Part shown: piece after piece, positions 14,808-53,584 of the stretch | How the letters are laid out: the number at the start of each line of letters is the position of its first letter | Position numbering within the stretch: position 1 is the first letter of the stretch | From: Octopus sinensis | Lineage: Eukaryota | Length of the DNA stretch: 64,000 nucleotides | Direction of reading: 5' to 3' | NCBI RefSeq assembly: GCF_006345805.1 | Contig: NC_042998.1 | Span: 5,022,001-5,086,000 of the forward strand | Notes under the pieces: generated by a model | Database searches by the model: none | The model's input: only the letters and a program-made list of their open reading frames with translations | What the model was told of the DNA's origin: nothing | Translations under genes and position numbers: made by a program

Positions 14808-15081
14808 GTTTCTTTATTAGCCACACAGGGCTGCACACAGACAGGACAAATTACAAGGTAGAGCTTTTCTTTTGGGGGTAAAAAAAGGGGGTTTGGTTTT
14901 TGATCAAAAGGGATCGTAAAGGGAAAGAAAGAGGACAAAATAAAGAGGGGAATAAATTTTTTTTAAAAAAGGGGGGAGGGAAAGGAAAAAAAAATTGATC
15001 AATAGGGATCGTTATGACAGAAATGTCAATATGAAGTGTAAAGGGGAGGACAGGTGAGGTTTACCCGTGGAAAGAAAAGCC
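14808..15081 (-). mobile_element. 5'-truncated L1/Tx1-type 3'UTR inside a (GATA)n array
   Basis: Homologous to 8948-9197; (GATA)n on both sides. Confidence 0.72.
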
Positions 15082-16039: not shown

Positions 16040-16040
16040 T
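15908..16040. repeat. Compound trinucleotide run (CTT/GTT/ACT/TTA/TCA)
   Basis: Seen directly. Confidence 0.9.
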
Positions 16041-21139: not shown

Positions 21140-22270
21140 AGATGGATGGATGGATGGATGGTGGGTCGTTCCCAGTCTTATGATCTCAACCAGTGGAGCT
21201 GCAGGCGCACCTTGTTGAAAAAACTGTATACCTGCTCTGTCTCCCTCTTTCGTGCTTATGTGCTACAGCTCGGTTCATATCTAAAGATTAGCCCATCTGT
21301 TTTTGGATGTTTTTTCTCCGTCTATATTTCCCCTTCAACGTCGGTATATGACGGAATCATCGTTATATGGCCATACCACTTCAGTTTGCTTTTGTTTATT
21401 ATTGTGAGAAAAATTTCATGGGACCAGTTCTAATCCTTAATGATTTTGCAAACATGCTCATTTGTAATTTAATCCAATAATGAAATACCTAAGATGTTGC
21501 GATAGCACATAATTTTCGTTGCCATTATCGTCTTCCCAATCTTTATCATTACAGACCATGTCTTGCATGCATACAGGAGTTTGGAAAGAATCAAGGGAAA
21601 TCGGAGCCTGATTTTCGGAATCATTGTTATATGGCCATAACACTTCAGTTTGCTTTTGTTTATTATTGTGAGAAAAATTGCATGGGACCAGTTCTAATCC
21701 TTGATGATTTTGCAAGCATGCTCATTTGTAATTTAATCCAATAATGAAATACCTAAGATGTTGCGATAGCGCATCATTTTGGATGCCATTATCGTCTTCC
21801 CAATCTTTATCATTACAGACCATGTCTCGCATGCATACAGGAGTTTGGAACGAATCAAGGAAAATCGGAGCCTGATTTTCTTGTTGGTAATGATGTTCTT
21901 ATATTTCTACATTTGTTCGAAATTACTTCGTACAATAATTGTCTTTGCAGATTTTGCAATGATTCCAGCCCTTACTCTTTTATCATTAATAATTGCTACC
22001 GCCTATTTGAACTTCTGCAATATCCCTAGCTTTTGTCCTTGTAAAGATATGTCTGTTGGGTTGACGCCGTTGTCACTGGTGCTGAGTTTGTTTGATTTCT
22101 TCAGGATTCATTTCTATACCATCTTGGTGGTAGCTCTAACGTGGTGCCTGACTAATTCAAGCAATTACATTTCCCCTTCCTAACAGTTACTCCCGTCATC
22201 AGCAAATCATCTGTTTGTTATATTGTCAACTTCAATTCCTAAATTCCACCAACCTTACTTTATTTCTAAT
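21140..22270 (-). mobile_element. RTE-clade LINE remnant (RT C-terminus to 3' end) with a 264-bp internal tandem duplication
   Basis: Reverse complement NITNR*FADD (about 22200) and FLTIINKSKLKWYGHIT; (TCCA)n-like tail; 21353-21616 duplicated at 21617-21880. Confidence 0.8.
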
Positions 22271-30984: not shown

Positions 30985-31232
30985 TTACCCTAAATTCGAT
31001 AATAATAATAATAATAATAATAATAACACATTTATATTTTTACAGTTATATGCAGTCCACTTGTCAATTACAAGCCTACTAAAAAGATATGTTACCCATG
31101 CACACGTATATGTGTGAACGCGCACAAACAAAACGTTGAAACAAAACTGTTTGACCGGAAGGTGACGCACAAAATATTCACACTTTAATCGCTTCATGCA
31201 TAGAGATCAGGTAGCAAGAATATGTATTTATA

Positions 31233-31647
31233 AGGCGGCGAGCTGGCACAAACGTTAGCACGCCGGGCGAAATGCTTAGTGGTATTTCGTCTGTCTTTAC
31301 GTTCTGTGTTCAAATTCCGCCGAGGTCGACTTTACCTTTCATCCTTTCGGGGTCGATAAATCAAGTATCAGTTACGCACTGGGGTCGATGTAATCGACTT
31401 AATCCCTTTGTCTATCCTTGTTTTTCCTCTCTGTGTTTAGCCCCTTGTGGGTAGTAAAGAAATAGGTATTCCGTCTGTCTTTACGTTCTGAGTTCAAATT
31501 CCACCGAGGTCGACTTTGCCTTTCATCCTTTCGGGGTCGATAAATGAAGTAACATTTACGCACTGGGGTCGATGTAATCGACTTAATCCGTTTGTCTGTC
31601 CTTGTTTGTCTCCTCTGTGTTTAGCCTCTTCTGGGCAATAAAGAAAT
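31233..31647 (+). mobile_element. SINE family B (tail type i): one head plus two 184-bp units
   Basis: 17-bp TSD AAGAATATGTATKTATA (31216-31232 / 31648-31664); units start at 31281 and 31465. Confidence 0.93.
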
Positions 31648-31736
31648 AAGAATATGTATGTATACTATATGTATTTACCACTTTCACAGAAATAAATACT
31701 AAAATTCATCCTAAATGCTATTATGCTAGAAATTAT

Positions 31737-31870
31737 ATAAAACAAGCGTGCTCCAGAATAATCTGAATAAAAGCGTGTAGGTATATAAGCACAGAGATAC
31801 ACAATAAAACAAGCGTGCTCCAGAATAATCTGAATAAAAGCGTGTAGGTATATAAGCACAGAGATACACA
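31737..31870. repeat. Perfect 67-bp tandem duplication
   Basis: 31737-31803 equals 31804-31870. Confidence 0.92.
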
Positions 31871-33157
31871 ACCAGTCACAAGATTAGTTTACATCTCAGT
31901 AATTATAAAAGTTAAAAATTAAGAATACGTTGCCGAGGTAAGATTTGTTAGTTTGTGGGATGAAGTTATTTTTGTTTAAGTACAGGTGTGACTTACCCAT
32001 TCTCATCCTCCCCTCACCAACCCTCGGCTTTTTTAACACAATTAAATGATGAGAAACACACTTTAATCTAATAAATGTGTACAAATTAGGATGATTTATC
32101 TGTCGCAGGTTACAATTATAGCAGCCATAGAAGACATGAAAACCAAAGGGGTATTTCAAATGAAGTATCTTATTTACAATCTGATTGTGTCTTATGACAA
32201 TTCTTAATTAAGAAACATGTTATTGAAATATAAACTTCACACATTCACGTATACGTGCATGCATAGAAGGAAGTGTATATATCTACAGTCATACGCATAT
32301 ACTTCGAGGAGAAAAATGATTGACTGACTGACAACGACTTGCTTCCAGGAATCAAAATTTAAATCATGTTATGATCATTACATTTAAAAGTCTGCAAGTA
32401 AAACATAAATTACACACATGAAACAAGCTTTCTTGTTTTATGCCTGAGGTGGTCAACAACGAATGCAAACAGAATATTACTAATGAGAAGTTTTCAGATA
32501 AAAAAAAAATTAAAGTGAAATATTCTATGATATTTATTTGGATTAAATAATTTATTCTAGTTATATTTGTTATTAATTTGTCGAAATCACAACTATATTT
32601 TTTGGCAAATTTCTTATTTGTTATTTAGGTGTGAGTCATAAATCTTGTGTATTTAGGATATTAGACGACTGGGCTAATAGTTATTACCATGTTTTGCCTG
32701 AAATTACCTTTCTTAGCTTCTATATGATTTAATGGTTTGAAGTAACTGGGGAATATGGCTGTGTATACACACAGTATTTCCAACGTATCACATACTGAGA
32801 AAACTTCAGTGACTGATTCGGTAAAAATTAAAACTGGGAAGATGAAACGCTTCAAAAGACTCAATTATTCGTCATCGAATTATTAGCATTCTCATGAGCC
32901 GAAAATTAGTGACATATTTCCATGGAAAGTGTCATAGCTAAATAAATTAGTATATTATATTTTTATACTTGTTATATCCTTATGGATTAAGGAGTACACT
33001 GCTACAGTGTAATAACAATATAATCGAAACAAACGGCAGTAATCACACGGAACGTAACAACAATCTTTTAAGAACCAACAATCCGACACGCTAACTCGAA
33101 CTGTAAATTTTGAACTCCGACTTTGAACTATCAACACGTTAACTGCGGAACTAGCAC

Positions 33158-35480
33158 GATGATTTTATTGAAATCACAAGAGTTAAACAAAGAGGGGGCA
33201 ATACATGGGACAAATAGAGGTCGGGGACTTATCGAATGAGATTACATTCATGAGTAAATACAATATAATTTCGGATGAAGAGGAAAGAATGGATGGACGC
33301 GGAATGGGTTTGACCCCACCAGTCACATTTCTGCGTTGAACCGTTTAGTTCGTCCTTTTTTGTTGTCAGACGTGTCTTCTCCAGATGTGTCTTCTCCAGA
33401 CGTGATTTCCTTCTTAACCGATATAACATGAGGTTAACCAAAGCATGCCCAAAGACAAAGATGTTTAATGCGATACCTCTTACATGCGTCTTCCATATCA
33501 CCCCTTTTCGCTGTATCTATTATGGCTAGGAAACAGAACTTTTCTTCTCCTCTTAGAGGAGACGGCAGAACAATCTTGATAATCAATTCGGCTGGTAGCT
33601 GCACTCTCCCCACCTGTGACAGTACTCGTTTGGTAGACACCCACAGGTCCGAGAGATTCGAGCACTGTACGATAGCATGCAGAACAGTTTCGTTACTCTG
33701 CCCGCAATGTGGACACGTAGGCGAAACCGTGACGCCGTGCCTCACGAGTTTATCCCGAACTGGCAAGGTACTTCGGAAGGACCAAGCAAGGGACCTCTGG
33801 AAGTTGCCCAGAGGTCTCGGGTCTAAAGTCCTACGATGCGGGCTGGCAAGCTGACATTCATTGAAACCCAGAGTCTCCACCAGGCCGTCATCACACTGGC
33901 CCTCTACCATGGCTCTATAGTTCGCCGAAGTGGTACCCCCTATGCCGGCATTGCTCGTTCGTGAGAAAAGCACGAGCACCTGTAGACACTCTGCTTTCCA
34001 AGCTCCCATGCTTGGTCTACGCCTGATCCAGCATTCCATTTCCCCAGAAGAGGTAAAACTTGGAAATATCTCATCACCAAACAGAAACCACGCCCACTCA
34101 CCGTCCAGGTAGAAGCAGAGATGCCTCAACCTGAGCGCATGTCTGCACGTCCTTAGCCACGGCATCCCTAACCCACTCTTTAGCAGCTGTTGGCAGCAGT
34201 TCGGGCGCCTTACAAGAGGCCGCCTGCCCTTCCACAAGAAGTGGAAGAGCATGCGTTCCAACTTGTTTAGCCATGAATCGGGGCACAGCACGACTTTTAG
34301 ACGATAAATAATGACAAATGCGGTAAACACATTTGAGTGATTGTGTGTGTTTGTGTGAGTGCTTGCGTGGATGTTTGGTTGGGCTGTGAATGTGCAGGTG
34401 TTTCTGTGGGGGCGGGGTAAGAGCCTTTTCTTTTTATCTCTTCCCTTCCCGCGTGCTCCCACTCTGTGTCTTCATCTGTCTCTGACTCTGTTGTGTTTTG
34501 TAAGAGTATATCCTCCACTTTCCCAGGTTTTGGTTGGATTTTCGCCGTAGTTGTAGGTGCTTCTAGTTTTGACGGCGGTGGTCGAGGTGCTGCTGGTTTC
34601 TCCTTCAGTGAGGTGGCTACTTTTTCTGCTGCTGCTGGTGGCACACATTCAGCCCTAATGTACCATTTCTGTCCGCATTTATAACACCTGGGCTTCCAGC
34701 CATCCACGTTCACTCTCAACTTCCTCTCTCCCACCGAAATTATGTCTATAATGTTCTCTAAGTCTCCTGGGGGCGGCCTGAATTATCAATTCTAAAGCTT
34801 GTCCCAGCGAGTTCTGCTGTTGGCACTTGTAGGCTTGAAGGATAGTTATTTTATCCTCTAAGCCCATTAAGATTGCATCAATAAACGAGGCAACATCAAT
34901 TTCCGGTGGTATTCCTCCACTCTTACCTTGGAAGCGCATCTAGCAAGGTATGTGGGCAGGAGAGCCGCCTTGGCTGTTTTCAACGGGTTCGTTAAATTTT
35001 GTCTGGCTTTTTCCTCGGTACGGAAACGCACATCTACCGTGTCGCATCGCTTTTCCATAGTTATGTACGTTACATCCATCCAAATGGCGCGAAGCCATTT
35101 CTCCACTGTTTCTTCAGTCGCCTGTTCTATTCTTTTCGATTTCATTGACACTGTTTTGTAAAACACAGTTTTCCTTGCTGCATTCTGTATAATTTCTCCG
35201 GGAGGTGAAACTTCCACCGCGTTACCCTCTCTTCGTAGTATATTTTTATGTCTGCCCGGTTCGAAGCAGACATTTTCTTTCGCCACGCTATCAGCCGAAG
35301 CAAAGTTTACGTTTTTCTCCGCATTTTCTTCCATTCTGCTTTCTTCATCTTTCTTCTGTCTTTCCATTTCCTTTTGCCTGCGTCTCACGCAGTCTTCTTC
35401 CAAACACCTCGCCATTAGCGTCTCTTCATCTCCCGACAAATTGTTCATTTTGCACTAACTGACTTAAATAACTAACCGCC
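33158..35480 (-). mobile_element. L1/Tx1-like LINE, internally deleted (ORF1 joined to ORF2 C-terminus), frameshifted
   Basis: ORF1 pieces 35448-34297 with zinc knuckle CYKCGQKWYIRAEC; ORF2 tail IIYRL...FLWKGRRPLV...GLGMP and zf-RVT LPVRDKL...CPHCGQSNETVLHAIVQC; AATAAA near 33164; no endonuclease or RT core. Confidence 0.88.
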
Positions 35481-35701
35481 GTATCTACTTACCCTTATGG
35501 CTGTATGAATCTGTCTATCCTTATAATGACGATAAGCATTTAAAGCTACAGGCAAATAAGATAATTAATAATGACTGGCATGGCTACAACCTTCGGTCTG
35601 GATCAGGTAAAAGATAAAATATTTGCTAATTAAAGTTAACTCACTTTAATTTAACTGTTTATCGAATATATCTTTTAATGATTAAGTCCGCTAGACACAA
35701 T

Positions 35702-35917
35702 AATCCTTTCTACTATAGGCACATGGCCTGAGGTTCTGGAAGAGTGAACTAGTCGATTACATCGATCCGCTGTTTCACTGGTACTTAATTTATCGATCCC
35801 AATATGATGAAAGGCAAAGTAGACCTCGGTGGAATTTGAACTCAGGACGTAGCAACAGGCGAAATACCGCTAAGCATTTCGCCCGGCGTGCTACCAATCC
35901 TACCGCTTCACCGCCTT
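35702..35917 (-). mobile_element. SINE family B (tail type ii)
   Basis: Head and central block intact. Confidence 0.88.
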
Positions 35918-36249
35918 CTTTGAACAAAATAATGGTTGAAAATATTCAACAGACCGGAAACAAACCAAATTTTGACAGATTGTTGGCATATACGTATGAA
36001 AGGAACATCGGTAGTTATTGCGAAGTCACATTATCTCTTTGAAAGGCTTTCCCTGCATATATGTATTACGTTATATAATGACGGTTTATATCTAAGAAAC
36101 CTTTCTAATTATCAAAATAAAAAAAATGTTCAATAAAGATTAAAGTAATTTCAAATTTTCACCCACTTGTCTGCTATTTACAACAAAATCATAGCGGGTG
36201 TGCGCCACGCTGAGGGCTGATCGCGGTTAGATAAAGCATCATAGACAGA

Positions 36250-36468
36250 AATATTCTTTTCTACTCTAGGCAAAAAGTCCGAAATTTTGAGGAAGGGAGC
36301 CAGTCAATAAGATCGACGCCAGTACACAACTGGTACTTAGTTTATCGACCCAGAAAGCATGAAAAGCAAAGTCGACCTCAGCAGAATTTGAACTCCGAAT
36401 GTAGCGACAGGCGAAATACTGTTAAGCATTTCACCCGGCGTGCTAACGTTTCTGCCAGCTTGCTGCCT
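36250..36468 (-). mobile_element. SINE family B (tail type ii)
   Basis: Head and central block intact. Confidence 0.88.
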
Positions 36469-36626
36469 CATCTGAAATATTGTTTCACATCTTGTTTGGA
36501 AAGTCTCTTGACTAAAATATGAACAACTACACACTTTTTCTGAAACGCTAAGTTGAAATATGGTACTCGTATAAAGTGTATGGCTTCATACTTTACTCCA
36601 ATATACTATTCCAATATTGTACTTAT

Positions 36627-37032
36627 ACTCTTTTACTCTTTACTTTTTTACTTGTTTCAGTCATTTGACTGCGGCCATGCTGGAGCACCGCCTTTAGTCG
36701 AGCAAATCGACCCCGGGACTTATTCTTTGTAAGCCCAGTACTTAGTCTATCGGACTCTTTTTGCCGAACCGCTAAGTGACGGGGACGTAAACACACCAGC
36801 ATCGGTTGTCAAGCAATGCTAGGGGGACAAACATAGACACACAAACACACACACGTATATATATATACATATATACGACGGGCTTCTTTCAGTTTCCGTC
36901 TACCAAATCCACTCACAAGGCTTTGGTCGGCCCGAGGCTATAGTAGAAGACACTTGCCCAAGGTGCCACGCAGTGGGACTGAACCCAGAACCATGTGGCT
37001 GGTAAACAAGCTACTTACCACACAGCCACTCC
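36627..37032 (-). mobile_element. SINE family A flanked by a ~147-bp direct duplication
   Basis: 36480-36626 repeated at 37033-37178. Confidence 0.93.
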
Positions 37033-37303
37033 TTGTTTCACATCTTGTTTGGAAACTCTCTTGACTAAAATATGAACAACTACAGACTTTTTCTGAAACG
37101 CTAAGTTGAAATATGGTACTCGTATAAAGTGTATGGTTTTATACTTACTCCAGTATACTATTCCAATATTGTACTTATGTGCAAAAATTTTCAGTTTTTA
37201 CTCGAAAATAGGGGTTAGTTTTGTGGGAAGGGAAAAATGGAGATGCATTATATATACATGGATGTGTCTCTTAATCGCTGGCAAATAGGCTGTATGTATA
37301 CTA

Positions 37304-37368
<65 letters not shown>

Positions 37369-37369
<1 letters not shown>

Positions 37370-37762
37370 TCTTTTAGCCTTTTATTTGTTTCAGTCATTC
37401 GACTTCGGGCATACTGAAGCACCACTTTTATTTGAACAAATTGACCCTAGATCTTATTCTTTGTAAGCCTATTACTTACTGTATCGGTCCATTTTGCCGA
37501 ACCGCAAGGTTACGGAGACGTAAACACATCACCATTCGTTGTCAAACGGTGGGGGGAGGGGGGGCAAACGCAGACATAAACATACACACACACACATATA
37601 TATATACATATACGTTTTCAGTTTCCGTCTACCAAATCCACTCACAAAGCATTGGTTGGCCCGAGGCTATAGTAGAATACACTTGCCCGAGATGCCACGC
37701 AGTGGGACTGAACCCGGAACCATGTGGTTGGTAAGCAGGCTACTTACCATACAGCCACTCCT
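37369..37762 (-). mobile_element. SINE family A (older)
   Basis: Homology to the other A copies. Confidence 0.88.
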
Positions 37763-37774
37763 ATATATATTATT

Positions 37775-37930
37775 CAAATATACAGAAAGCAAAAAACAGA
37801 GAATTTGAGGGAACAAGAAGCAGGTGCAATAATTTGACGCTCGGTAGAAATAGAAAAGTCTTTGAGGTTTCGAGCCTACAGTCTTCGGCAGGAAGTGATG
37901 AGCGGAAAAAATGGAGAAAGAGAAAAAAGT
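37775..37930 (-). mobile_element. Family E repeat with decayed hammerhead-like motif (37860-37895)
   Basis: Reverse complement CTTC-CTGCCGA-A-GACT(gtag)GCTC-GAAA-CC-TC-AAAG. Confidence 0.65.
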
Positions 37931-39249
37931 GTGTGCGTGGTGTGTATGTGCATGTATGTGTGCATGTGCGTGTGGAAAGTATAGCTTTACATTGTCTCAT
38001 ACATGTTTAACTAAATGCCAATTTACTGAAAGTAGTTAATTTGTAGCATCAAAACAAATTACTTCACTACACGTCTACAATTTCATATCTGAAAAGAAAG
38101 GAGATGCTGAACTTAATGTTAAATGTTAAAAAAATATGGCTGAGAAAATAACGATAAATATGAAGTGGAAAACTATACATGTAAACAAAATGCTAAGGTT
38201 GAGCATCAGAAAACATTGGTTTCTTTAAAAGAATAGCAATATTAAAGTACAAATGTGTATGAATGTGTATAACAGTGTATGTGCTTGTGTGTGTGTGAGC
38301 TTGTGTGTATGTGAATGAGTGTGTGTGTGTGTATATGTGTGTGCCTGTGCGTGTATAGGCGTTCGTAAAGGAAAAAGTGAAAGCATCTGAGAACAGTAGC
38401 TGTTCGTCAGTTCATCTTTATAAATAATGCTTTGATGTCCTAACGATTCAGTGGAGAAGAAAATTGCTCTTTCAGTTACACCTGAAGAAGTTTCTGGCTT
38501 ATTGTCTTCGATTCTGATATCGTTTACAAGTACTTGGGATAGCATATAGTATTTGTTGTATATACTTGAAGTTTCGATTTCAAATTCATGCTTGCCTGCT
38601 TCTTTACGAGCCTTTGCTTACTTTGAAACAAAATGTTAACGAAAAACTACATGAGCATTTGAAACTCCACTACCTACATCGATTTATATCTCCCATAAAT
38701 ACAACACTCACCAAAGCAGACTGTCAGCAGTCTCCTTGGATTGTTTTCTCTGATATCTAACCGAGTCGGTGGACTATCCTTCATACAAAACGAAGAGACT
38801 TCTTGTTGTCTCTGCATACTACGCTACTTGTGTTTAGGCATACCTCAGTTAGTCACCATATATAATTTCTGTTTCATTCATGCACACATATTCAGATCAT
38901 GTGCCCTTTTGAAATGAATACAGGAAATATTTCCTGGGGTCCAATGATGGGATAACGCTCAATGTCGAACATGATTGGGATGATTTGACCTTGGTCATTA
39001 ATCAACAAAATTAATTACTATTCAGTTCGTTACCATCTGAGCCACCCTTACAGAACAGATGATATCACAATAAATTGTACTAAGGTAATGGCAACAACGA
39101 TCCTTTCAAATTAAAGCCCAAGGCTGGTAATTTTAGGTAGTTAGGGCTAGTTGCACAATTATATATCTTACGATTTATGCTTGCATGTTTTTGAAATAAC
39201 TAAGAGTTGAAGTTAAATAACGTTTCATATTATGAGTTTAAAAAGATTG

Positions 39250-40520
39250 TCTGTCGATTTGTTATCATTACTCGTATTCATGCAACATCCGGCAAGAAAC
39301 AAATAAACTCTATAAAGCTTTTCCCGGAGCAGCATAGTAAGCGAGCTTTCTAGTCTCCCCTACGATTCCTACTCTTATAAGTCACAACCGGAATTTTTAA
39401 GAACCAACGAAGAAATAGCCTCTATCTATTTCATTCTCCTCTGTTTGCAGGTGATTCTCTAAAATCTTATTACAATATTTCGTCTCTTTAAAAGTATATA
39501 TTCGCTTCAGCTGCCATACTTTTTTGAATGGTATCTTTGCTTCAGTGCTATTCCACGCGTGCTTTAAATTGAGTTTTCGTTTACCTTTTAAGTCACTATA
39601 TTATATAGAATGTCCTGCAAACATCTTTTACATCTTTTTTTCTTGTAAACGCCTTGTGCGCAGCATGTGCGCCAATCGCAATAAAACTAACAAGAAAGTC
39701 AATTCATTGCTGTTGTTTTCTCTCAGCAACTGCTCTTTCAAACAACTTCATTCACCATACCTTCAATCATAGTACCACAACATTGGTTTTGAAATCCTCA
39801 GTAATGTAAGATATCTCACAAAAGCTGCATACTTCTTCGCTAGCTTTACAATTGTTCACACCACTCGCGATATAATCTGCCGTGTTCACCGTCACAAGAG
39901 TTCTATTTTTTCCCGACGCTGAACGATTCCACCTTCAACAGCAGCCTAAACTGTATCTCTGTTAAAAAGAGACGAAATGAGTATGACTTAAGCGCTGTTT
40001 TGTCCTCCTAACTCGTTAGGATCAATTCAAGGTCGTCTAAAACAGAATTTCAGAGACCCGACGGAAAACAGTTTTGCTAAACATTAAAAAGAACAACTCA
40101 ACATTGAACTCCACCAAAGGCTACACGTTGATTTACTGTCGATTTATTTGCGTAAGCAGTCCATTATAATTTGGGGATCGTCGAATTCTGCATGTGACAA
40201 AGTGGATTAAACCCATCCACATCGGAACTCAATTCCTTCCAGAATCAGGAAAACACTTTCATTTAACCAACTATAAAGAAGCGACGTCGCTATGTCAGGC
40301 TAATCAATGTCTGTAGGCAAGGAGTATCGCGCAACTCAACAAATCTCTCTTTTGCAGCAACTCGGGAAATAATTATTTAACCAGACTCTATGAGAAACAA
40401 GTCCACACCGCCGTGCATGATGTCATCTCTTCCAACTCATTTGATCCTTCAGCCATTAACTTCATTGAAATCATCTTAACTTTCACCATCCACCTCCTCC
40501 TCCTCCTCCTCAAAATTCTC
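39250..40520 (-). mobile_element. Possible ancient piggyBac transposase remnant
   Basis: Acidic N-terminus (ENFEEEEEVDGE), WMGLIH..RIRRSP and GD...LAYY...FLPDVA resemble piggyBac blocks; many stops. Confidence 0.4.
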
Positions 40521-41926
40521 AAATCAGAAAATTCTCGCAGTAATTTCACTCCCATGTGTATCTGCACAACTGAACTCCTTTCCGAGGACCTAAGTAACGT
40601 ACCTTAAAATTACCTTAAATTATCTTAAATTTGTTAAAAGGATATAACAGAAGAAACTACTGTAAAAAATAAGGCGGAAACAACATTGTTAATAATGAGA
40701 TACCAAAGCGATTGATGAATTTCAACACGAAAATCTTTTCCATTCCTGAACTGCATAAGAATTGCAGGCTACTTTTCTTGCATACTTTTCTATCGTTGTA
40801 TATGTACATGAAATCCCTTCTCACTACAATCCTTACAACTCGTGAATGCAATTATATGAGACCTACCAACAGTACATCATCATTCAAATCAATACTAAAT
40901 GGAGAATCGCTAATGCATCAAATGAATCCATGAAGAAAATCCTTGACTTAGATTGCTTTAGTGTTAATCAAATAGATTAAAAGTTAAGTAGTAGCTGGTT
41001 TATTGCGGGTAACTTTTCCTGGCAAAAAAACAAAAATCTGATACATATTCCCAGATGGTCCGGAAACTAAGAAGCAAAACTCCCTTTTGACAATAAAATG
41101 TTTGTAAAGGTTGGTCACCCGAGCCGTATGAGTCGGAAAGAAAATATTTTATCATTTCAACCATTTCATATTTACATATAACAGGTTTACAGGAAATAAT
41201 TTCTGTCAAGAGATACTTTACTTTGTTCCTATTCTGCGGTTTTAAATAAATATAATGTCATAATCCCTACGATATGCCTGTCAAGATCTATATACATACT
41301 AATCTATCAACAGTTGATAATGTTACGCAGCAAGCACAATTGCGAGGTACAGGATGGTTATTTAGACACAACGTTGTCTGTCTGGGAAATAAATATGACT
41401 AGCAGAATGAAAATTGTTATATAAGTAAAACAATGTACTTCTGTTAGTAACTGATAACTCTTATCTACAATTCTGAACAATTTGAAGAAATGTAAAGTAA
41501 TTCAATATTCTATATAGCCTACAGTGATGTTTTCACTGTGAGAATAAAGTTACCATACTGTTGGAATGTCATTACAACTTGACCGATCCAGAAAAGTGGT
41601 AGACTATATATCTCGGTCCTCAACAGAAATTCTATTAGATACAATGATTTGCAATATGTAATCTAATTCTCTCGCATTTTATATTAAGATGGCAATAGAG
41701 GAAAAGAAGACACGTAAAGAAATGTTATTTCTCTGCAATGAGTTTAACAGTAGATATTCGTATATTCCAATTTTTCACATATTTCGTGAAGACGAAATAT
41801 AAACAAAGACACAAACACACATAAAAATATTTACGTGTGTATTTTGTGTATGTTTGTGTTATTGTATGAGTGCTGTTGTCTCTTTTTCTCTCTTCGTAAA
41901 TAAATACACATACACACATACATATA

Positions 41927-42363
41927 TAAATGTCACTAAATGCGACTAGGGCGTTAGGAAACACCTACATTGCTAGAAATTAGATCTAATCCGCGCTAAT
42001 GCTGTAGTTAATGCACATGAATGAAAACATACACTAACAGGGACCATAATTGTCCGAAAAGTGGCGATCGAGAATTCTTAATACTGGCGCGTCATTTTCG
42101 GCAGTTCCCGTTGCCTCATCAGTTGAGACAGCTCGACTTCAGCCCTTACCGGTCACACTTCACCGTTAGTATTTATGTTTCCATTAACCAAATAACTGGA
42201 TGATTTAGCGATTCGCTAATGTGAGTATTTAGAATTAATATAAACAGCAATTTGCAATGTTTTCATTCATATGTGCTAACTACAGCATGAGGGCGGTTTA
42301 GCTCCTATTTCTAACAACAATGTAGGTGTTTCCTAACACTCCAGTCGCATTTAGTGACATTTG
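41927..42363. mobile_element. Tc1/mariner-type MITE with ~100-bp imperfect TIRs
   Basis: AAATGTCACTAAATGCGACT...GGAAACACCTACATTG versus CAATGTAGGTGTTTCC...AGTCGCATTTAGTGACATTTG; TA flanks. Confidence 0.85.
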
Positions 42364-42512
42364 TAATTCTCATTTCTCATGAAACAATGCAAACTGCTGT
42401 TTATATTATATAATAATACTATATAATACAATAATACTCTATTTGTCCAAGAATACTATATTTGTTACACGTCCTCGCGTTGATGTGTTTATTTCTGCTT
42501 TCTTGTTTGGAT

Positions 42513-42554
<42 letters not shown>

Positions 42555-43444
42555 CATACATGCAGGAGCGTTCGTGTGCGCTCACACAGGCAAAAGTAAG
42601 TATATGCCCGTCCGTAGTGATAATAGGCAGGGTTATTTTGGACGAAAACAGCTGGTGTCCTCCTTTCTGATTTGAAATAAGGATACGTAAGACAGAAATT
42701 ACTTCCCTCTCCTACGCAATTATCCAACAATACGTATGCATATTTTTTCTTGTTTGTGTCATACAATTTCAATTTTTACTATGCTTCTTTCTTCATACCC
42801 GTGATAAAAAATAATATTCATATGGTATACAACAGGAAGAGTAAACTAAATGTGATTTTTACGTGCCAGTAATATAGAACGAGTTAATAAAATCAACTAC
42901 ACATTTTCAAATCTTATTACTTCTTAATATAGCAATTTCCATTCGAATTATAAATACCCATAAAATGTAATGTTTATTTCGGTATTAAATTACCATGTGC
43001 ATTTATATATATTTTTTCATGTATATATTAAACAAATTATCAGAGTCGTTGGTGTGAATATATCAACATTTAATAATAAACGTCTTATTTCAGCTTTAGA
43101 CATAGAACTTCAAATAATGTAGGAAAATTTTTATCGGTGATTCAGAAATGATAAAAAAAAAGTCAAATGATAAAAAAAAGGTCAATTGGAGTGGAATTTG
43201 AATTCTAGAGATTATTAATGACTTACACCGCAATTTGCCAACTTTGTAATTCTCAGAGAATGATGCTTGAAGGAGATCATTTTTTTCTTATATTGACCTC
43301 TCGGAAATAACGTCACAACTGAAGATTTTGTGCCATAGGTTATACTTTTAAAACGGGCTCGTAGTAGTGAGACGATTTACGAAGAAATATGCAAAGAAAT
43401 TAAGGGCAACGCTTATTTTCTCTTTGAAAGGACTAGCACTAAAA

Positions 43445-43790
43445 TCAGTAAAGTAAAAAGTAAAGACCCTCTTTGCTTATGGATGAGCATGGGATTGAAC
43501 CAAGAAAGTTCTCCTCCGAGGCACAATCCGAGCAAGGTTGTTTATGGAAGGCCAGCACTCACCCATGAATACCATTCTTCTCTCCTCTGAGTGACTGATT
43601 TGATCCAAGGGACGGGCCGATACAGCTTGGCACCAGAGACGTCGCAGTTCGTTTCTAAAACTGAGTGAAATGAAGCAACAGGAAGTAAAGTGAATTACTC
43701 AAGAATGCCTCACAAAGCCTGGTCCGGGAATCGAACTCACTACCTCATGATTGTGAGCTCGATGCTCTCACCACTGAGTCATGCGCCTTC
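43445..43790 (-). mobile_element. tRNA-derived SINE family D
   Basis: Reverse complement GGCGCATGACTCAGTGGTGAGAGCATCG...GAGTTCGATTCCCGG (A/B boxes); (TTTAC)n-like tail. Confidence 0.82.
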
Positions 43791-44139
43791 AATCTATCGT
43801 CAGTAGCACAGTAAATTAATATGATAGTCCGATAGTGTGGCAAGTTTTAAAAGCCCGATTGTAGTGAGCTATGATTTTATGGTATTTTGTGTGTTCATGG
43901 ATCCAAACACTCAATACCATTTTCTGAAAATGGATCGTAGACATTGTGAGGCTTTGATTTCAACAGTCATCCAGATTAGCCAAGGGAAGATATATAGTTA
44001 ATAAGACGAACGAAAAGTATATAAGTTTCTTCAAATCTCAATAGTTGTGCAATGCTGTTGGACATAATCAGTATACATAGACAATGACACAATCAGAAAT
44101 TGCAAAGAGGATAAATTCACGGAAGGCCCATAATAAATA

Positions 44140-44704
44140 TTGGGTTGTCCGGAAAGTTCGTGCCGACTTTTAAAGGCAAGAAAAAGGTCAATAAATATTT
44201 GTGTTACATTTTTAATCAATCAAATATGAACCATTTTGTTGCACAATGTGTCTCCATCTTCCCTTTAACTTGAAAATACCCTCTTCCCAGAGGTGAGGTG
44301 GATTCATGGCAAAGAATTCATCAAGGATTTTTTTTATGTCATCCAAGAAATTAAAATTTTTACCGTTAAGACTGTTCTGCAGAGCCCTGAATAAGTGGAA
44401 ATCCGAAGGAGCAATATCTGGTGAATATGGAGGGTGGGCTAACACATCCCAGCCGAGCTGCAGCAATTTTTGTCTGGTTCCCAAAGCATCAAATGCCGAA
44501 AATGTACTTTCTTATCTTCCATTTTAAAGGGTTACAGAATTAACACAGGTTATAAGAGTATAAATCTTCTTCCACGAAAACACAGCTTCAACTGTGCTCT
44601 AAATGAAGGTGTAGCCAAATCTTATTTTATGAACTCAACCATGTTCTAAAATAAGTCGAAAAGCAAGCTACTATAAATCGGCACGAACTTTCCTGACAAC
44701 CCAA
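44140..44704 (-). mobile_element. Internally deleted mariner (mellifera/cecropia-like)
   Basis: TA TSD; TIR TTGGGTTGTCCGGAAAGTTCGTGCCGA; HPPYSPDIAPSDFHLF motif (ORF 44212-44484). Confidence 0.93.
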
Positions 44705-45084
44705 TAGATTAGCGAACTAGCTAAAGATAAAATGCTTAGGATTATTATCCACAATAAATTATAATTTCTTACATTTACTTTAGACCTAGTAATAGAAAAT
44801 TATGAAGTGAAGAGAGAATCCATATGTAGAGTAAAATATATTTGTGAAAACGGTTTTGCGGAGCAAATGCTTTCTGCATCGCAGTAAGACAAACTATCAA
44901 CACCCGTCCAGTCACACTCATATGAAATCACACTAACTTGCAACTATTAGAGAAAGGCTCTATTTTTTTTTCATTTAAGGTTATTAATTCATTAATTTAA
45001 TTATGTATGTGTTACGGATTTCTTAGACATTTCCAGTGTTTTGACAATAACAAATCCTGTTCTATGCTAATATATGCCGTTTCT

Positions 45085-45802
45085 AAGGCGGCGAGCTGGC
45101 AGAAACGTTAGCACGCCGGGCGAAATGCTGAGCGGTATTTCGTCTGCGTTACGTTGTGAGTTCAAATTCCGCCGAGGTTGACTTTGCCTTTCATCCTTTC
45201 GGGGTCGATAAATTAAGTACCAGTTCCGCACTGGGGTCGATGTAATCGACTTAATACCTATGTCTGTCCTTGTTTGTTCCCTCTATGTTTAGCCCCTTGT
45301 GGGTAATAAAGAAATAGGTATTTCGTCTGCCGTTAATTTCTGAGTTCAAATTCCGCCGAGGTCGACTTTGCCTTTCATCCTTTCGGGGTCGATAAATTAA
45401 GTACTAGTTACGTACTGGGGTCGATATAATCGACTTAATCCGTTTGCCTGTCCTTGTTTGTTCGCTCTGTGTTTATCCCCTTGTGGGTAGTAAAGAAATA
45501 GGTATTTCGTCTGCCGTTACGTTCCGAGTTCAAATTCCGCCGAGGTCGACTTTGCCTTTCATCCTTTCGGGGTCAATAAATTAAGTACCAGTTCCGTACT
45601 GGGGTCGATATAATCGACTTAATCCGTTTGTCTGTCCTTGTTTGTTCTCTCTGTGTTTAGCCCCTTGTGGGTAGTAAAGAAATAGAAATAGGTATCAAAT
45701 TCTAGGGTCAATAAATTAAGCACCAGTTGCGTACTGGGGTCGATCTAATCGACTGGCTCCCTCTCCCCAAAATTCCAGGCCTTGTGCCAAGAGTAGAAAA
45801 AG
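45085..45802 (+). mobile_element. SINE family B composite: head, three type-i units and a type-ii tail
   Basis: Units at 45134, 45317 and 45501, fourth junction at 45691; 16-bp TSD AATATATRCCRTTTCT (45069-45084 / 45803-45818). Confidence 0.92.
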
Positions 45803-46099
45803 AATATATACCATTTCTGCTGTCCATTTCTGTTGAGCTAACATCATAACTCTCTTGCGAAAGTTAGTTTCTTTTGATGAAACACAACTACACTGTCTAG
45901 TAAATAGTTCAAATATACGTTCATCCACGCGCACACACATGCGTGTACATATGTGTTTGTGTGTATATATATAAATACTTTTTAACATATATTGTACTTA
46001 TGTTTATATTTTAGTTTCCCAGATGCGGATACTGAAGAGTTAGAAATAAGATGAACGGCCTCAAGAAGAAAGTAGTTAGCTATTGGTAACAGAGAAGGT

Positions 46100-47350
46100 C
46101 ACTTCTATCATAAATTATGCTGGCTTTAGTATGAGTCGAACTCTTTGTCAGGCCATGCAATATCGATTATACCACTTCGAGTAATCGTATATCTGCCGCA
46201 TAACAGAAAATTTATAGGGCAGTGGAATGTAGAAATTGCAAAACATCAAACAAAATAGCTGGTGATATTTCATTATGTTTCGTACGTCCTGAAAAGATGT
46301 CTTGTATATCCTGTATCTAGATTCTGGAAAAATTAAATAGAAACACGTCTGTTCTAAGCAGAAATATTTACAAGTTCCACAGGTATCATATGTTGTAGTA
46401 GATTTATGATTGAATATACTCGTTCAACCTCTCAGCTAGGAACCTTGTGATGCAGAATATTCCTGATAGCATATATTGCTTATAGCATGTATAACATAAA
46501 GGTGAGATAGAGATCAATCAGTAAAACGCACTCTTGTTGTGGAGACTGTGGCTTCAAGGTAAACGTTATCCAATGAAGACATTTCATTGACAGGGGGAAT
46601 AGTTTGCAACATTTTACTTATAATGAATCATGCTATACAAAATTCCCCCTAGCGGAGTAAAACAGTCTACCGCTCTTGATTTTCCAATATTGAATAAAAC
46701 GTAATATCACTAACTTTATCAACGAATATTAATCTGTGAATATATACAAATACACCGAGTTAATAAGATTCTGTGAACATGTATGCAACGTAAAATTGTT
46801 CAGTCTTTCTGTAAATTGTCATATAGTTTATATCACATCTATTTTTTTTTAATATCGGGTCCAAAGTATTGTTATGAGTCTCTATAGGAAAGATGCTACT
46901 CGAATGACAGTACACACTCGGTAGTATGTGATCTGATTCATGTGGTGCAAAATTTCTGGACTGCATAAATGTTAGGGTTATCCGCTTAAGGTTGGTGCTC
47001 CAATAACCTCTTAGTATTATTTCGGACTTCATATTCCATATCCTGTATCTATCGGTCCCTACATCTTTGTACTTGGTCAACTTATTTAGAATTTCCGTGG
47101 AATATTTAGGAATGTAATACAATGTCGATGAGTACACAATCCCTAGCTTCCTACTCCTGAAAATGACATCAGGCTTGTGGATATTTGTATCTCTTTGGGT
47201 GTAGAAGTGAATACCCCCAGTAGTTTTGACATCATTTTCCCTAGATGTCATGTTTGACTGATAGTCACGGCACTTCTCAGTTACCTTGGCTATATAACTC
47301 ATGCATATATTCCACTGTAAGCTACTATCTTTGGCCGCGTGCCGAAGACA
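46100..47350 (-). mobile_element. Ancient PLE-like RT remnant
   Basis: DVIFRSRKLG (ADKG region), SPCQ*NVFIG (AP.YANLFMG-like) and DIQDIF (YIDDIF-like), in the expected order. Confidence 0.45.
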
Positions 47351-47449
47351 TTATTCCCACGGAAGAATGAATATATTAAATTTTCTGAAATATAAAAATT
47401 ATTGTCATATGATTTTGTATTTTAATGCATTTCAGATATAGTTTTACAT

Positions 47450-48750
47450 ATTGTTATTTCTTAAAGGCCATATGTGCTTAGATATATTTGAATCAAAAAC
47501 TTTTTTATGATTTCTGAAAATATGGTGGGCGTTAAATGCACTTTATTTTAAAGAATCGTTTTGTGATATATATACTCATTAGTAACACAAAAACGGTCTC
47601 ACCATATTCAATTTATTACACAAGTGTTCCTTGCTTTATAAATGCATAACGAGGGACACTTTTATATCTGAGAAGCCACGTCAGCAAGTTTCAGCTATCA
47701 TCAGTATATTTTCTGAAAGCTTGAAAGATGCTGTGACACAACTTAGTCATAAAAGAAAATCTGGTTTTAAGGAATAATAATATATGAAACTATAAATATA
47801 TTTTAGACTATGTTAGAATATACCAAACCTTTTGATTAAAGTAAAGAAAATAGGGATTCAGGGAAAATTAATTTTTATTCCACAGGAATTATATGATTGA
47901 TGTCTGTTCAGATTAAATCATTTTTATTGACATAAATCGCAATATTTTTAAATGCCCAAAGTTTAAACATGACACATCCTAACATGTTCCCGATAAACAC
48001 TCCTTACTATTCATATTTTTCTTCAGGTTAATCGCATTTAAGAAAAGCATTGATGGTGGGTAGTAGATGGCTTTAAGAAGACATTTTGAAAATTAAAGAA
48101 TGATTCTTCGAAAGAGGATCTTTTTCATACAGCTTCAAATTTATTTATGTTAAGGACTTTCTGTAGGTTATAAATAATTCTTTATGTTGTCTGTACATAT
48201 GTATAACCTGTGTAGAATATTCATGAGGGAGTAGCATCAGATTTCCTGTTGCTTTTATAAGTGATTCATAAATTTCAATATTTTATTTCTAAATTCAGTA
48301 TTAAACATAAGAACGATTCGCTTTAAGAATTTAATTACAGCTGAGACATCTTCAGATTTTGAGAAAGTTCAAAGTTGAAGAAAATATAAACTTTCTGGAA
48401 GATATTTGGAGAACTATAACTATGTTGAAAGTTACAGGAGGAAAAAATAGATGTCACCCTTTTCAATGATGTAGAGATTGAATGAGAATTTGGTTAATTT
48501 TTGGAAGGTACATTAGTAAGAATTCGGTCCCTCAATTTTTCGTAAGCATTGAACATCACCTCCTAGTCCACTGGTGCCTTTGTAGAATTCATTCTGTAGC
48601 ATATATTCGCACCATTAACGAGTTACCTCACGACGGACATTTAACATCTACGTTTCCTTAGAGGCCCACATGTAATAGTAAACCTGCAGGATGGTTGTCT
48701 TTTGCCTACCTTCATCTCTCCCATTTCCCGACAAAGAAAGTCAGCGTAGG
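47450..48750 (-). mobile_element. Possible ancient LINE ORF2 remnant
   Basis: VRIYA and LGGDVQC (APE-like), KYTDDS (YADD-like); very degraded. Confidence 0.3.
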
Positions 48751-49282
48751 TTGCATAGTGACACTTTATGGGCGACAATTCGAATGACAGAAAAATAAGC
48801 CGAAATGCGTAGGCGTAATTGACAGTATGGCTGTCTTGTCATAGTTCGATTTCCATGAACGGGTGTTCTGTGCGGAATATTTTCATCTTAGTGTATCAAT
48901 AAACATGAACTCAAAGGAAGATATGATATAGTTTTTAAATCTCACAGATCTAGAGGGGCATATTTTCCCAATGTAAAACGTAATTCTGTAGACAGGAAAT
49001 TTCAGACCACAAATAATGTGAGAGGTATGTAAAATTCGCTGGCCGATCTCTTCCAGAAGAAATTTTCGCAGTTAAATCAATTTTAAAGGAATGGTACATG
49101 GAAATAAAAGGGATGTGCGTTAATAGAATGTTAACATAATGAGCGATCGATGTGGCGCATTTCTAGAGACATAACTTATTTCCGCTTTCTTATTTCAATA
49201 ATGTAATTTTGTGTGTGTTTGTGTGTGTGTGAGTGTGTGTGTGTGCATAGATTTATACACGCGCGCGCACGCACACATACAC

Positions 49283-49354
<72 letters not shown>

Positions 49355-49358
49355 TAGG

Positions 49359-49518
49359 TAGGTAGTCGGCCGCATGCTAGAAATAGATCATCAACGATCA
49401 AACTACAAAGAAAGTTCTCTAGAGGAAAAATTCAGCGAACACCAGAACCAAATTTGGCGGGCAGGACAGATGAAAATTCATATAAATGATCTATTTCTAG
49501 CATGCGGCCGACTACCTA
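49359..49518. mobile_element. 160-bp MITE-like element with perfect 33-bp inverted ends
   Basis: TAGGTAGTCGGCCGCATGCTAGAAATAGATCAT (49359-49391) is the exact reverse complement of 49486-49518. Confidence 0.8.
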
Positions 49519-49803
49519 GCAGTCTTGCCCTGCCAATATACACATATATTAGAATTTTCTCTGATTTCTCAGATTTTTTGTATGCTAGGCTACTGGTTTT
49601 AAATTAATATTGAAATCAATATTAATTTATCTCCCTCATTATTTAAATTTTTATATATATATATATATTCATATATACACGATATATTGTAAAAATAACG
49701 ATAATCCTTGGGTAGTATTTATAAACATTTAATGCATCACTACGCGTGTTTCCAGAAATCACTTTACTACCTGATTCGTTTTCTCTCATTATTGGATTGT
49801 TTC

Positions 49804-50354
49804 GATTTGCTCTCTCCCGGAACAAATGTTTGTAGTCAGCCAGAATGAGGGAGCTTTCCGCAAATCACATGTCCCTTAAGATCACAGTCCATATTCCTGG
49901 AAGGATTACAGTTTAGTCCGTAGTATTCGTGGACATTTACCCGATGCCCACGGATACTACGGTACTACCCACCTTTGACATCACCAGACTGAATAGCAAA
50001 ATAAGTCCAGTATCCCCACACACCTCCATCCACATTTAACTATCATTCCTTACCCTCTTTTCATCACCTCCCCCTCCTCATTACCAAATTCACACAGAAA
50101 TACCCAAATAACCCCATCAATTTTCGCACTGGTCAAAATGGATAATCATCTCTCTCTCTCTTAAACATCCATTAATACGATAGCGCCTGAGGAAATGAAT
50201 CCATGAAGATGATTTATTCGATGGCCACGGATACTACGGACTACACTGTAATTATCTCAAGAATATGGACTGTGATATTAAGGGAGATGTCATTTGCGGA
50301 AACCTCCTTCCTTCTTGTCTGACTACAGAGATTTGTTCGCGGAGAGAGCAAATC
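49804..50354. repeat. ~130-bp imperfect inverted repeat around a C-rich spacer
   Basis: 49804-49932 versus 50225-50354. Confidence 0.85.
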
Positions 50355-50662
50355 AAAGACAGAATGCGATAATAAGGGAAAGGTGAAACAAGTTCAGTAC
50401 ATAAATGACGAAATGCAGAGTTGATGTTTGTATGGTTTGAACTGAAAGCTTATATAGCCAGAACGATTGCAGCAGATCAATTTAACACTCATACGAGTCT
50501 ACGAACACATCACCTTATATATACATATATACATACATATAATGAATTAATATATATGTATAAATAAAATATATATGTATACAGAGAGAACGAGAGAGAG
50601 AAAGAGAACGAGGGAGAGAAAGAGAGTGCAGGGAGAGAGAAAGTGAGTTAGAGAGACAAGAA

Positions 50663-50704
<42 letters not shown>

Positions 50705-51465
50705 ATGTGGTATATTGTATATGTATAAATTAAACGTTCGCTTAACAAGACATGGAAAATGACAAGCATATATAGAGATTGTTACACAAAGAGACATATT
50801 CATAACCTCTAAATGCATATTAATATTTATACATCATGCTATCTAGACATATATTGGCATAAAGTACAGAAATATATTCATGTATAGGTAGTTCAATATC
50901 TTATTCATAGCACTAATTTTATCATATACTTTACATTTTATGGATAAATAAGTGAAATGAATATACCAAGAATTGTTCTGGGGTTACCAGCAATGTTTCT
51001 ATAACAGGTTGATGGACGGCGAAATTAGCAGAGCATTGGCAAATGTCTTTCGCATTCGGTCTTTTGCAACCTGTTCTAAAATTATGTAGAATCGACGTTT
51101 CCTTTCATGTGGTGTAGTTGTGATGAAATATATATCATGAATATGCTGGCGATCACTTACTTGACAATACTCACCTTCAAATACGTATCGTTTTGATAAC
51201 AATAATCAGTCTATACATGTTAACTTGCTATTTATCATTTTCATTATTTTCTTTTAAGCTCTTTTGATATACTATTGCAGATGATAATGCAAGTTAATAT
51301 AAGTCATAAACTTACAAAGTCTACTTTTCGCAAGATAGTTCGCTCTTATCATAGAAAATATTATTTCGCAATTGCTGACGATTGTCGAATCTACTAAACT
51401 TGTTTTGAAATGAAAATCATAATGAGGATGCATAAACTGAAAATATTAGGAATAACAAAAGTGTT

Positions 51466-52062
51466 GATTTGAAATTTTGTCACAGGGCCAACAATTCCGG
51501 CAGAAGGGGTAAGTCTATTACATTGACCCAGGGCTCAAATGGCACTTATCTTATCGACGTTAAAAGGATGAAAGGCAAAGTAGACATTAGTCGAATTTGA
51601 ACTTAGAAGATAAATATGAACGAAGTGCCGCACAGCATTTTGATAGGCGTGATAACGTTTCTTATTTCTTTATTGCCCACATGGGTGTAAACATAGATGG
51701 GACAAACAAGGACAGACAAACGGATTAAGTCGATTATATCGACCCCAGTGCGTAACTGGTACTTAAGGATGAAAGGCAAAGTCGACCTCGGCGAAATTTG
51801 AACTCAGAACGTAACTGTAGACGAAATACGTATTTCTTTATTAACCAAAAGGGCTGAACACAGAGGGGACAAACAAGGACAGACGAACGGATTAAGTCGA
51901 TTACATCGACACCAGTGCGTAACAGGTGCTTAGTTTATCGCTCCCGAACGGAGGAAAGGCAAAGTCGACCTCGGTGGAATTTGAATTCAGAACGCAGCGG
52001 CGGACGAAATACCACAAAGCATTTCGCCCAGCGTGCTAACGATTCTGCCAGGTCGCCACCTT
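51466..52062 (-). mobile_element. SINE family B composite: two type-i units followed by an old type-ii copy
   Basis: Junctions at 51830/51831 and 51660/51661. Confidence 0.88.
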
Positions 52063-52508
52063 AAAATAATAAAATATTGGTTCAATAAACGGTAATAAAG
52101 TAAAATAAAATATTTGAAAATTTAAAAATATGTCTTTAAGTAAAGAATAAGTAACATATAACGCGTTAGTCCTTCCATTTGAATGCCTTAAAGAGCTGCA
52201 AAATTTCTTAAAATGATTCTTTTTTAGGAGATATATTTAGAAATGCAATTCTGGATATTCAAAAACAAATAATTAGAAATGAGATTTGCGCACAGTAGCA
52301 AACTTATACTGAACCATCCTAATCACATTAATCGACCATTGTACTTTATTACAACTTGTTTTATTGACCCAGCAGATATGAGACGCAATGATCACACATG
52401 TTTCAATTTCAGGTTATTCTGAAATATTCATTGCACTGTGTCTAAATTCAGTTAACTTCAGCTGCCTGCCTGCTCCATATGTAAATATAATCTACTAACA
52501 ATGACGGT

Positions 52509-52810
52509 AAGACGGTGGTGAATTGGCAGACACGTTAGCACGCCGGGCAAAATGCGTAGCCGTATTTCATCTGCCGTTACGTTCTGAGTTCAAATTCCGC
52601 CGAGGTCGACTTTGCTTTTCATCGTTTCGGGGTCGATAAATTAAGTACCAGTTACGCACTGGAGTCGATATAAACGACTTAATTCGTTGTTTGTCCTCGT
52701 TTGTCCCCTCTGTGTTTAGCCCCTTGTGGGTAGTAAAGAAATAAGAATCTCAGCACATTATGCTAAAAAGCTTTACGTTCTAAGTTCAAATTCCTCTAGG
52801 GTCGATTCTG
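52509..52810 (+). mobile_element. SINE family B type i followed by the remains of an older copy
   Basis: After the tail AAAGAAATAA the sequence resumes GAATCTCAGCAC...TTACGTTCTAAGTTCAAATTCC. Confidence 0.85.
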
Positions 52811-53584
52811 CAAACTAAATTTGATATGAGAAAATTACTACTTCCTGAAAAAACACAGTTAAGTGCATTTCTTCGGGTTTAATCGCGCTACTTTGAAAGT
52901 ATTATCGAGAATTCTGATAATTTTTGTCTTATTTGGAGTTTCATTTTAATTTATTGAACACTTTTCTGGCTACTACATTATATATGCAAGATCACGTTAA
53001 GCAACATGCTCATTATAGACTAGTCAGTTCTGGAAAATGTTCCCATTATATTAAACTAGATTATCAGTGAATAGTGTTCTATCAAAATCTCTATCTTCCC
53101 AATCACTCCGAGCTCTGCTACGTACGAGAAAGCGTATACTCTGTTGGGGATCTAATGTGACCACAACACGCCGAAAGTTATCGAATTCATGTTCCAATTC
53201 TACTTTTAAAGCATTATGATTTCGCCGTTATCTCCCTCGCCTTTCGTAACCAGATGATCTTAGAAAGCTAACGACTTTCTCTCTATTACGTGTTCTAATT
53301 TTAGTGGAAGAAATATTTATTAGGATCATTACATTAATTATAACAAAAGTCATTTAATTTAATTACCTATATATTTTATTACTATTCTGAAATTTGCCTC
53401 AGCTCTAATAATTCTGTAACAATTAATGCATCATCATTTTAAGGACATACAAAAATCGTAGAAAAAGCGTATAAAAATATGTCAATATTAAACTCACAAG
53501 TAAAGGTTTTAGAAATGCGATATTTTTTTCTCCTAGGACGGATTATATGAATATATTAACACTTGTATTTTATAGGCATTCAAG

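Follow-up and report, generated by a model that had tools for sequence, protein, structure and literature searches.

The window analysed here is a stretch of 64,000 nucleotides from Octopus sinensis (contig NC_042998.1, positions 5,022,001 to 5,086,000 of the forward strand). It contains composite arrays of a 232-nt repeat, whose parts are listed below in window coordinates together with a related LINE end. Unit types and positions refer to the repeat family described after the list, and organism E is a related species.

14809..14850, minus strand: LINE 3′ end with a tail homologous to that of the type-i SINE; (TATC)n comes next
31217..31232, plus strand: left TSD of a dimer; begins with AGAA, the target motif of C tails, and matches 31649-31664 in 15 of 16 letters
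31233..31464, plus strand: head and first unit with a type-i T tail; carries a 62T/64T variant in common with the last unit
31465..31648, plus strand: second unit, from position 49, with a type-i C tail; the presumed host remainder
31649..31664, plus strand: right TSD of the dimer
45069..45084, plus strand: left TSD of a four-part array; 14 of 16 letters match 45803-45818
45086..45316, plus strand: head and T unit
45317..45500, plus strand: T unit, positions 49-232
45501..45684, plus strand: T unit, positions 49-232; differs by 5% from the preceding unit
45685..45807, plus strand: extra 6-nt tail repeat, then a type-ii unit from position 49 with an internal deletion; the presumed host
45803..45818, plus strand: right TSD of the four-part array; overlaps the end of the type-ii tail
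51831..52061, minus strand: head (20T, old type) and T unit
51663..51830, minus strand: C unit from position 49/50
51465..51662, minus strand: old type-iv copy restarting at position 16; the presumed original host, whose tail end is also found in organism E
52510..52528, plus strand: head of the host SINE (positions 1-16), also found in organism E
52529..52743, plus strand: inserted T unit (44G/49C type); absent in organism E
52744..52810, plus strand: degenerate host SINE restarting at position 16

Two tandem duplications unrelated to the SINE, with two copies each, are also present in the window, at 21352-21880 (264 nt, 95%) and 31737-31871 (67 nt, 100%).

The 232-nt repeat (type i) has positions 1-166 in common with three older subfamilies (ii, iii and iv), whose tails differ. 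The type-i tail has two variants, T (GGGTAG..) and C (GGGCAA..), and exact type-i tails occur 107,393 times in the 2.72-Gb genome. The repeat is short, interspersed and of high copy number, and it is flanked by TSDs of about 16 nt, as a SINE should be. Its 3′ tail is shared with an APE-RT LINE family (26 of 33 letters), as in tRNA-derived SINEs. ARAGORN found no tRNA in the SINE; motifs resembling A and B boxes were read by eye in the head, in genomic DNA and against the general consensus. The octopus SINEs OR1 and OR2 have been classed as CORE-SINEs in two papers (PMC4824008, PMC4758252).

For frequencies, 80 unselected 10-kb regions were sampled. A further 70 loci, which had been picked for carrying a joint, were used for structure only and were excluded from frequencies, and overlapping duplicates were removed. 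The TSD caller made 0 false calls in 150.

The first-pass annotation had claimed that SINE tails in the window run directly into the same internal position of another copy, and this was borne out. The tail AAAGAAATA is joined to SINE position 49 at 31465 (with one mismatch, GGTATTCC), 45317 and 45501, and on the minus strand at 51830, where C replaces G. At 45691 the joint is partial; position 49 comes after an extra GAAATA repeat, and a deletion lies behind it. At 51662 (minus strand) and 52744, an older and more diverged copy restarts beyond the tail at position 16 (AGAA). It was also correctly noticed that the array from 45086 ends in a type-ii tail and is enclosed as a whole by one TSD (14/16).

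Is this arrangement peculiar to the window? Across the genome, the exact 20-mer joint of the tail with position 49 was found 35,298 times (reversed control 0) and the exact joint with position 16 was found 2,783 times (control 0). In the unselected regions, 25 of 29 tail-to-SINE joints are at the fixed positions (22 at 49 and 3 at 16), and at least one fixed joint is present in 16 of 52 type-i loci. The joints are fixed rather than random, and the self-insertion joints are real, genome-wide and beyond chance. As read from these joints, the young SINE apparently homes into its older relatives at two fixed spots, and has done so tens of thousands of times. A third, small hotspot was also seen, where T copies lie antisense in the central domain of the SINE at GGTACTT (L144, L145, L042 and L380/L400). 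At G000:C1:7400076-7400475, three joints read as the tail followed by TATATTTTGTC, as though a TA tag had taken the place of the first letters of site 49.

The two tail variants differ in where they land. In unique flanks, T tails are followed by GGTA in 31 cases and AGAA in 4, whereas C tails are followed by GGTA in 0 and AGAA in 16 (p = 7e-10). Inside SINEs, T tails resume at position 49 (129 vs 1) and C tails at position 16 (11 vs 1); by eye, 85 of the first 100 listed position-16 joints have C tails. Since the motif is found in the upstream TSD copy, it existed before the insertion. Where the two copies differ in their first four letters, the motif is on the tail side in 15 cases and upstream in 2 (54 TSDs; p = 0.002). 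This tail-side bias suggests that a tag of read-through RNA pairs with the nick, and longer pairing or head homology would favour SINE hosts. A sub-lineage effect is seen as well; T copies flanked by TATA mostly carry 44G (11/13 vs 8/21). After a SINE tail, base 49 is C only 387 times compared with G 35,298 times, and 49C heads are nonetheless common (19/33 T monomers). It is likely that the letters of the SINE RNA steer the landing spot in part. A motif of four to ten letters was also considered as the sole cause of the site-49 share and was rejected, because a short-motif matrix from 32 unique targets, which is biased low by being built from unique flanks, predicts 0.5-4% of insertions at site 49 and 14 of 28 loci were observed there.

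Two related LINE families have 3′ ends that match the type-i tail. The first runs into (TATC)n and encodes Exo_endo_phos and RVT_1 domains; its 3′ remnant occupies 14809-15090 (minus strand) in the window, and further loci are L092, L126 and L140. The second is 5.4 kb in length; exact matches genome-wide number 155 for its 3′ end and 86 for its 5′ end, which suggests an unusually high full-length share. By eye, about 90 of the first 100 of the 155 3′ ends lie at SINE position 49, and all 20 of the full-length copies fetched are inside a SINE whose positions 49-64 are duplicated (16 bp), with base 49 identical on both flanks in 19/19. This LINE has a fixed target in a repeat. Its tail agrees with the SINE tail in 26 of 33 letters, and its frames are broken but homologous to the ORFs of the (TATC)n family, a two-ORF APE and RT organisation. 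Such a two-ORF element is seen at L331 and L332 (G000:C2:29.13 Mb and C1:0.83 Mb), and the hosts are mostly type-i SINEs. Homologue and Atlas searches of the LINE returned matches carrying no clade name; the partner is putatively of the Tx1 type. The site-49 LINE is likely the enzyme source for the SINE, a partnership suggested by the common tail and target. Its two full copies are 97.7% alike and look younger than the SINE burst, which counts against this reading. A single constant 15-nt copy of the target, borne by the LINE, was considered and proved wrong (5/19); three recurrent upstream variants, which differ from the downstream copy in 13/20 loci, suggest LINE-borne letters.

It is conceivable, though rather unlikely, that insertion is in place but that the endonucleases of different LINE partners alone read GGTA, AGAA or TATA, without any pairing by the RNA. 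In the Tx1 clade, LINEs frequently owe their target specificity to the endonuclease (PMC4494074), and at least two related LINE families with different targets (site 49 and (TATC)n) are present here. The tail of the site-49 LINE is C-like and yet its target is site 49, which speaks against pairing; the same C-like tail counts against the endonuclease as well, and so does the distance of about two letters between T and C tails. The endonuclease would also leave two further observations unaccounted for, namely that the motif favours the TSD copy on the tail side and that the SINE almost never uses hosts with C at 49, unlike the LINE, which uses C and G hosts about equally. If the RNA does pair, the choice of target may be heritable through RNA; the letters after the tail of a source would serve as a short guide, and daughters would land on sites resembling that of the parent. 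I hold this extension to be tentative, at slightly below an even chance.

Are the arrays nested insertions? The last units come from five subfamilies (iT, iC, ii, iii and iv), the T-then-C and C-then-T orders are both found, and joints into old subfamilies gave 115 and 595 exact matches. When the divergence of the parts was compared, first units were found to be young (2.6-3.9% non-CpG in the three larger groups), while last units are as old as their own monomers: 7.3 vs 6.7% for ii, 11 vs 9.8% for iii and 12.3 vs 11.9% for iv, the figures for iii and iv last units resting on two arrays each. Among 41 old-type last units, 0 of 820 pairs are less than 8% apart, whereas 45% of 630 pairs of T monomers are.

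Nested insertion is shown directly by two-headed loci. Their layout is an old head, positions 49-64 duplicated with the private changes of the host, a full new copy and then the host remainder. A TSD at 49 with private mutations was seen in 3 of 51 arrays with an old host, in none of 71 others and at about 8 of 23 loci from a targeted search. They are rare, since the targeted genome-wide search for the strict form gave 72 matches only, some of which are tandem 65-nt head repeats. The two-headed form is commoner with diverged hosts (3/44 vs 1/121, p = 0.06).

Most arrays have a single head, and the heads and outer TSDs bear on how these arose. The old-subfamily base 20T is present in the head of 20/40 arrays with an old last unit compared with 13/64 with a young one (p = 0.002), although the contrast is absent within the two targeted searches alone (19/38 vs 4/8), which argues against an in-place origin. 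The divergence of the head follows that of the last unit (rho 0.27, p = 0.004) and not that of the first (0.12, p = 0.2); against an in-place origin again, T monomers carrying 44T likewise have older heads. The outer TSDs are mismatched at 79/706 in arrays ending in ii, iii or iv compared with 18/281 in T monomers (p = 0.024), the rate being 0.107 where the array ends in ii, 0.106 in ii monomers and 0.064 in T monomers. This TSD-age test is modest, with p = 0.054 for T+ii alone and p = 0.07 for the TSD excess of T+ii dimers over T monomers. By exact matching, 360 T+ii dimers have a host-like head (divergence 4.7-7.3%) and 232 have a donor-type head (2.5%). In both head classes the last units are old and mostly unrelated, and TSD mismatch is equal.

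At a single locus, an orthologous site without the insert was found. In contigs of organism E, which come from two runs of one study and show a flank divergence of 5-12%, the sequence corresponding to 52043-52528 is separated by one letter from that corresponding to 52746-53400. These contigs contain the degenerate host SINE and lack the T unit, and the window copy has neither a second head nor a new TSD. This empty orthologue is one locus of the position-16 type, and none of the position-49 arrays is bridged by the contigs. At the 45086 and 51465-52061 arrays, the contigs extend over the flanks, the start of the head and the old tail, and break inside. A contig also departs from the window sequence at 52043, leaving 98-107 letters, which is suggestive only.

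It was assessed whether positions 49-64 of the first unit are host letters, that is, a hidden TSD. As a general rule this was rejected for old hosts (sharing 18 compared with 15.7 by permutation, positions 49-66), but it holds partially in TG-headed T+ii dimers (11/52 vs 2/56). Since host letters at 49-66 are mostly not kept in the first unit, the cDNA would usually have to replace the sequence of the overhang. A likely exception is the 31233 dimer, judging from the 62T/64T variant in both of its units, which is expected if positions 49-64 are host-derived.

The older and independent last units, the TSDs at 49, the host-aged heads and TSDs and the empty orthologue favour the first of two options that had been offered at the outset, namely sequence-directed insertion into SINE heads with homology-mediated 5′ joining. 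I estimate at roughly 0.7 the probability that the one-head arrays were mostly made in place, with the new 5′ end joined to the host head.

The young donor-type heads of the 232 T+ii matches also fit composites that were copied again. In that case, transcription of two-headed nests would have started at the inner head and passed through the host remainder, and the composite RNAs would have been re-copied with fresh TSDs. The TTTT terminator is absent in every unit, two-headed loci exist, and the donor-type heads amount to about 39% of T+ii dimers. Re-copying is nevertheless improbable, because sister last units are nearly lacking (0/820, 2/325 and 7/325 pairs below 8%) though the sources are about 1% of loci or fewer, the TSDs are host-aged, and the host is retained at the empty orthologue. 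It is less probable still that the arrays were two-headed at first and that the 65-nt head copies collapsed later through DNA recombination. Mosaic heads do occur, and 65-nt head repeats have expanded at some loci, so two heads do recombine, but collapse would need to have removed about 99% of the 65-nt repeats while the longer 184-nt repeats persisted. The excess of two-headed loci with diverged hosts is predicted by annealing and collapse alike.

The second option had been template jumping or rolling reverse transcription of the 184-nt unit, in which the reverse transcriptase would jump from position 49 to the 3′ end of another RNA or roll on a circular RNA. In its favour, a predicted hairpin has its loop at site 49, and neighbouring T units of short arrays agree in the 126/129 haplotype a little more often than by chance (21/32, p = 0.07). 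This option is disfavoured on the sequence evidence and is very improbable: it predicts young TSDs and no earlier host, whereas an orthologous host was present at one array locus, mixed subfamilies are impossible by rolling, and of 35 adjacent T/T pairs in arrays no longer than three units, only 5 have at least two private mutations in common. Finally, an Alu-like origin of all arrays from one dimeric master would explain why the joint is identical base for base, but it is already refuted by the five kinds of independent last units without sisters, by both T/C orders and by unequal ages, the arms being neither co-amplified nor equally old as in a true dimer.

In-place insertion is not the only source of units. 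The long arrays L032, L051, L069 and L082 have private mutations in common and higher-order periods, so that they qualify as SINE-derived satellites, which most arrays of two or three units do not; it was shown that the long arrays expanded through local duplication. The units at 45317 and 45501 may stem from either insertion or duplication. L051 (G000:C1:12139147-12140267) and L032 are arrays of nine and ten units, and L051 has a three-unit higher-order period. Near-identical tandem segments of 65-67 nt, consisting of a head and a TSD, precede a full unit at G000:C1:195358956, C7:15322785, C18:40399002 and C3430:1370-2207.

A mechanism for in-place insertion may be proposed in four steps. An L1/Tx1-type LINE endonuclease would nick the host SINE, as supported by the 5.4-kb LINE with the related tail, which uses the same base with a 16-bp duplication. 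The SINE RNA would then extend beyond its tail, and the added letters (GGUA.. with T tails, AGAA.. with C tails and UAUA.. in one sub-lineage) would pair with the nicked strand and set the start of reverse transcription; the linkage of tail and target and the TSD asymmetry point to this step. Next, the cDNA would anneal to the host overhang and head, and repair would retain either the host or the donor head, as suggested by the host-aged heads and TSDs and the one empty orthologue. Base pairing of the 5′ end with the matching head of the host would explain why no second head or new TSD is formed, and the joining of heads would restore a putative A-box/B-box promoter. Repeated rounds would produce mixed arrays of two to four units, and local duplication would lengthen the long ones.

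The R2 element, which has a restriction-like endonuclease, is autonomous and targets rDNA, whereas the octopus SINE is non-autonomous and targets its own family with tags that differ by sub-lineage. In R2 and PRINT, the nicked target is paired by a few RNA letters lying past the 3′ end, insertion becomes more efficient as the read-through homology lengthens, and the 5′ junction is either a seamless "anneal" or a duplicating "join" (PMC11371274, PMC6795142), which match the one-head and two-head products of the octopus SINE. R2-like pairing at the octopus SINE is read from genomes alone, and the genomic signatures fit it. L1 priming likewise depends on an RNA-DNA match (PMC4014453), and the 5′ ends of LINEs are joined either directly or through annealing (PMC4245944).

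The Alu family has a self-insertion hotspot at Alu position 133 with about 15,000-19,000 events in sense orientation, ascribed to poly(A) pairing and L1 nicks (PMC2836564). The two are alike as SINEs inserting in sense at one base of their own family, but the Alu site adjoins an A-rich linker and the TSD is kept, while the octopus SINE has two non-A sites tied to tail variants and has mostly lost the second head and TSD. The crocodilian SINEU and the Tx1 LINE Tx1-Mar have a common transposon target, with tandems made by sequential insertion (PMC4494074); there the target is a DNA transposon and the tandems sandwich a TSD, while the octopus SINE targets itself and leaves a seamless joint. In S. 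broughtonii, a blood clam, TSD1-(SINE)n-TSD1 arrays have one full head, head-truncated repeat units and a single outer TSD (PMC11481361), the same one-head form as in the octopus. Their units are also 3′-truncated and are ascribed to unequal recombination, and the available text of that account contains no test of an insertion mechanism. In squamate SINE-derived satellites, a portion of the SINE is repeated in tandem and the terminal unit is extended; long ones are homogeneous, and unequal recombination is the explanation given (PMC10702118); the octopus arrays differ in that their first duplication is a targeted insertion. A search of openly available papers listed none on the arrays of this octopus SINE, and neither "nested" nor "satellite" had a match in PMC13282606.

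The system offers a way for a dispersed SINE to turn directly into satellite-like arrays, which starts from targeted insertion instead of chance duplication and may explain the one-head arrays of clams and reptiles that were described without a mechanism. TSD-less insertions and chimeric copies confound the dating of SINEs and the trees of their subfamilies. The octopus SINE would be a natural, genome-scale case of RNA-guided choice of the start site and scar-free 5′ joining by an APE-type retrotransposon, so far known mainly from R2. If the target choice is indeed heritable through RNA, SINE site 49, SINE site 16 and (TA)n would be stable end points of an RNA-guide loop; the SINE would retrohome into its own family, rebuild a working promoter in each round, and would have drawn in a LINE that targets its own passenger.
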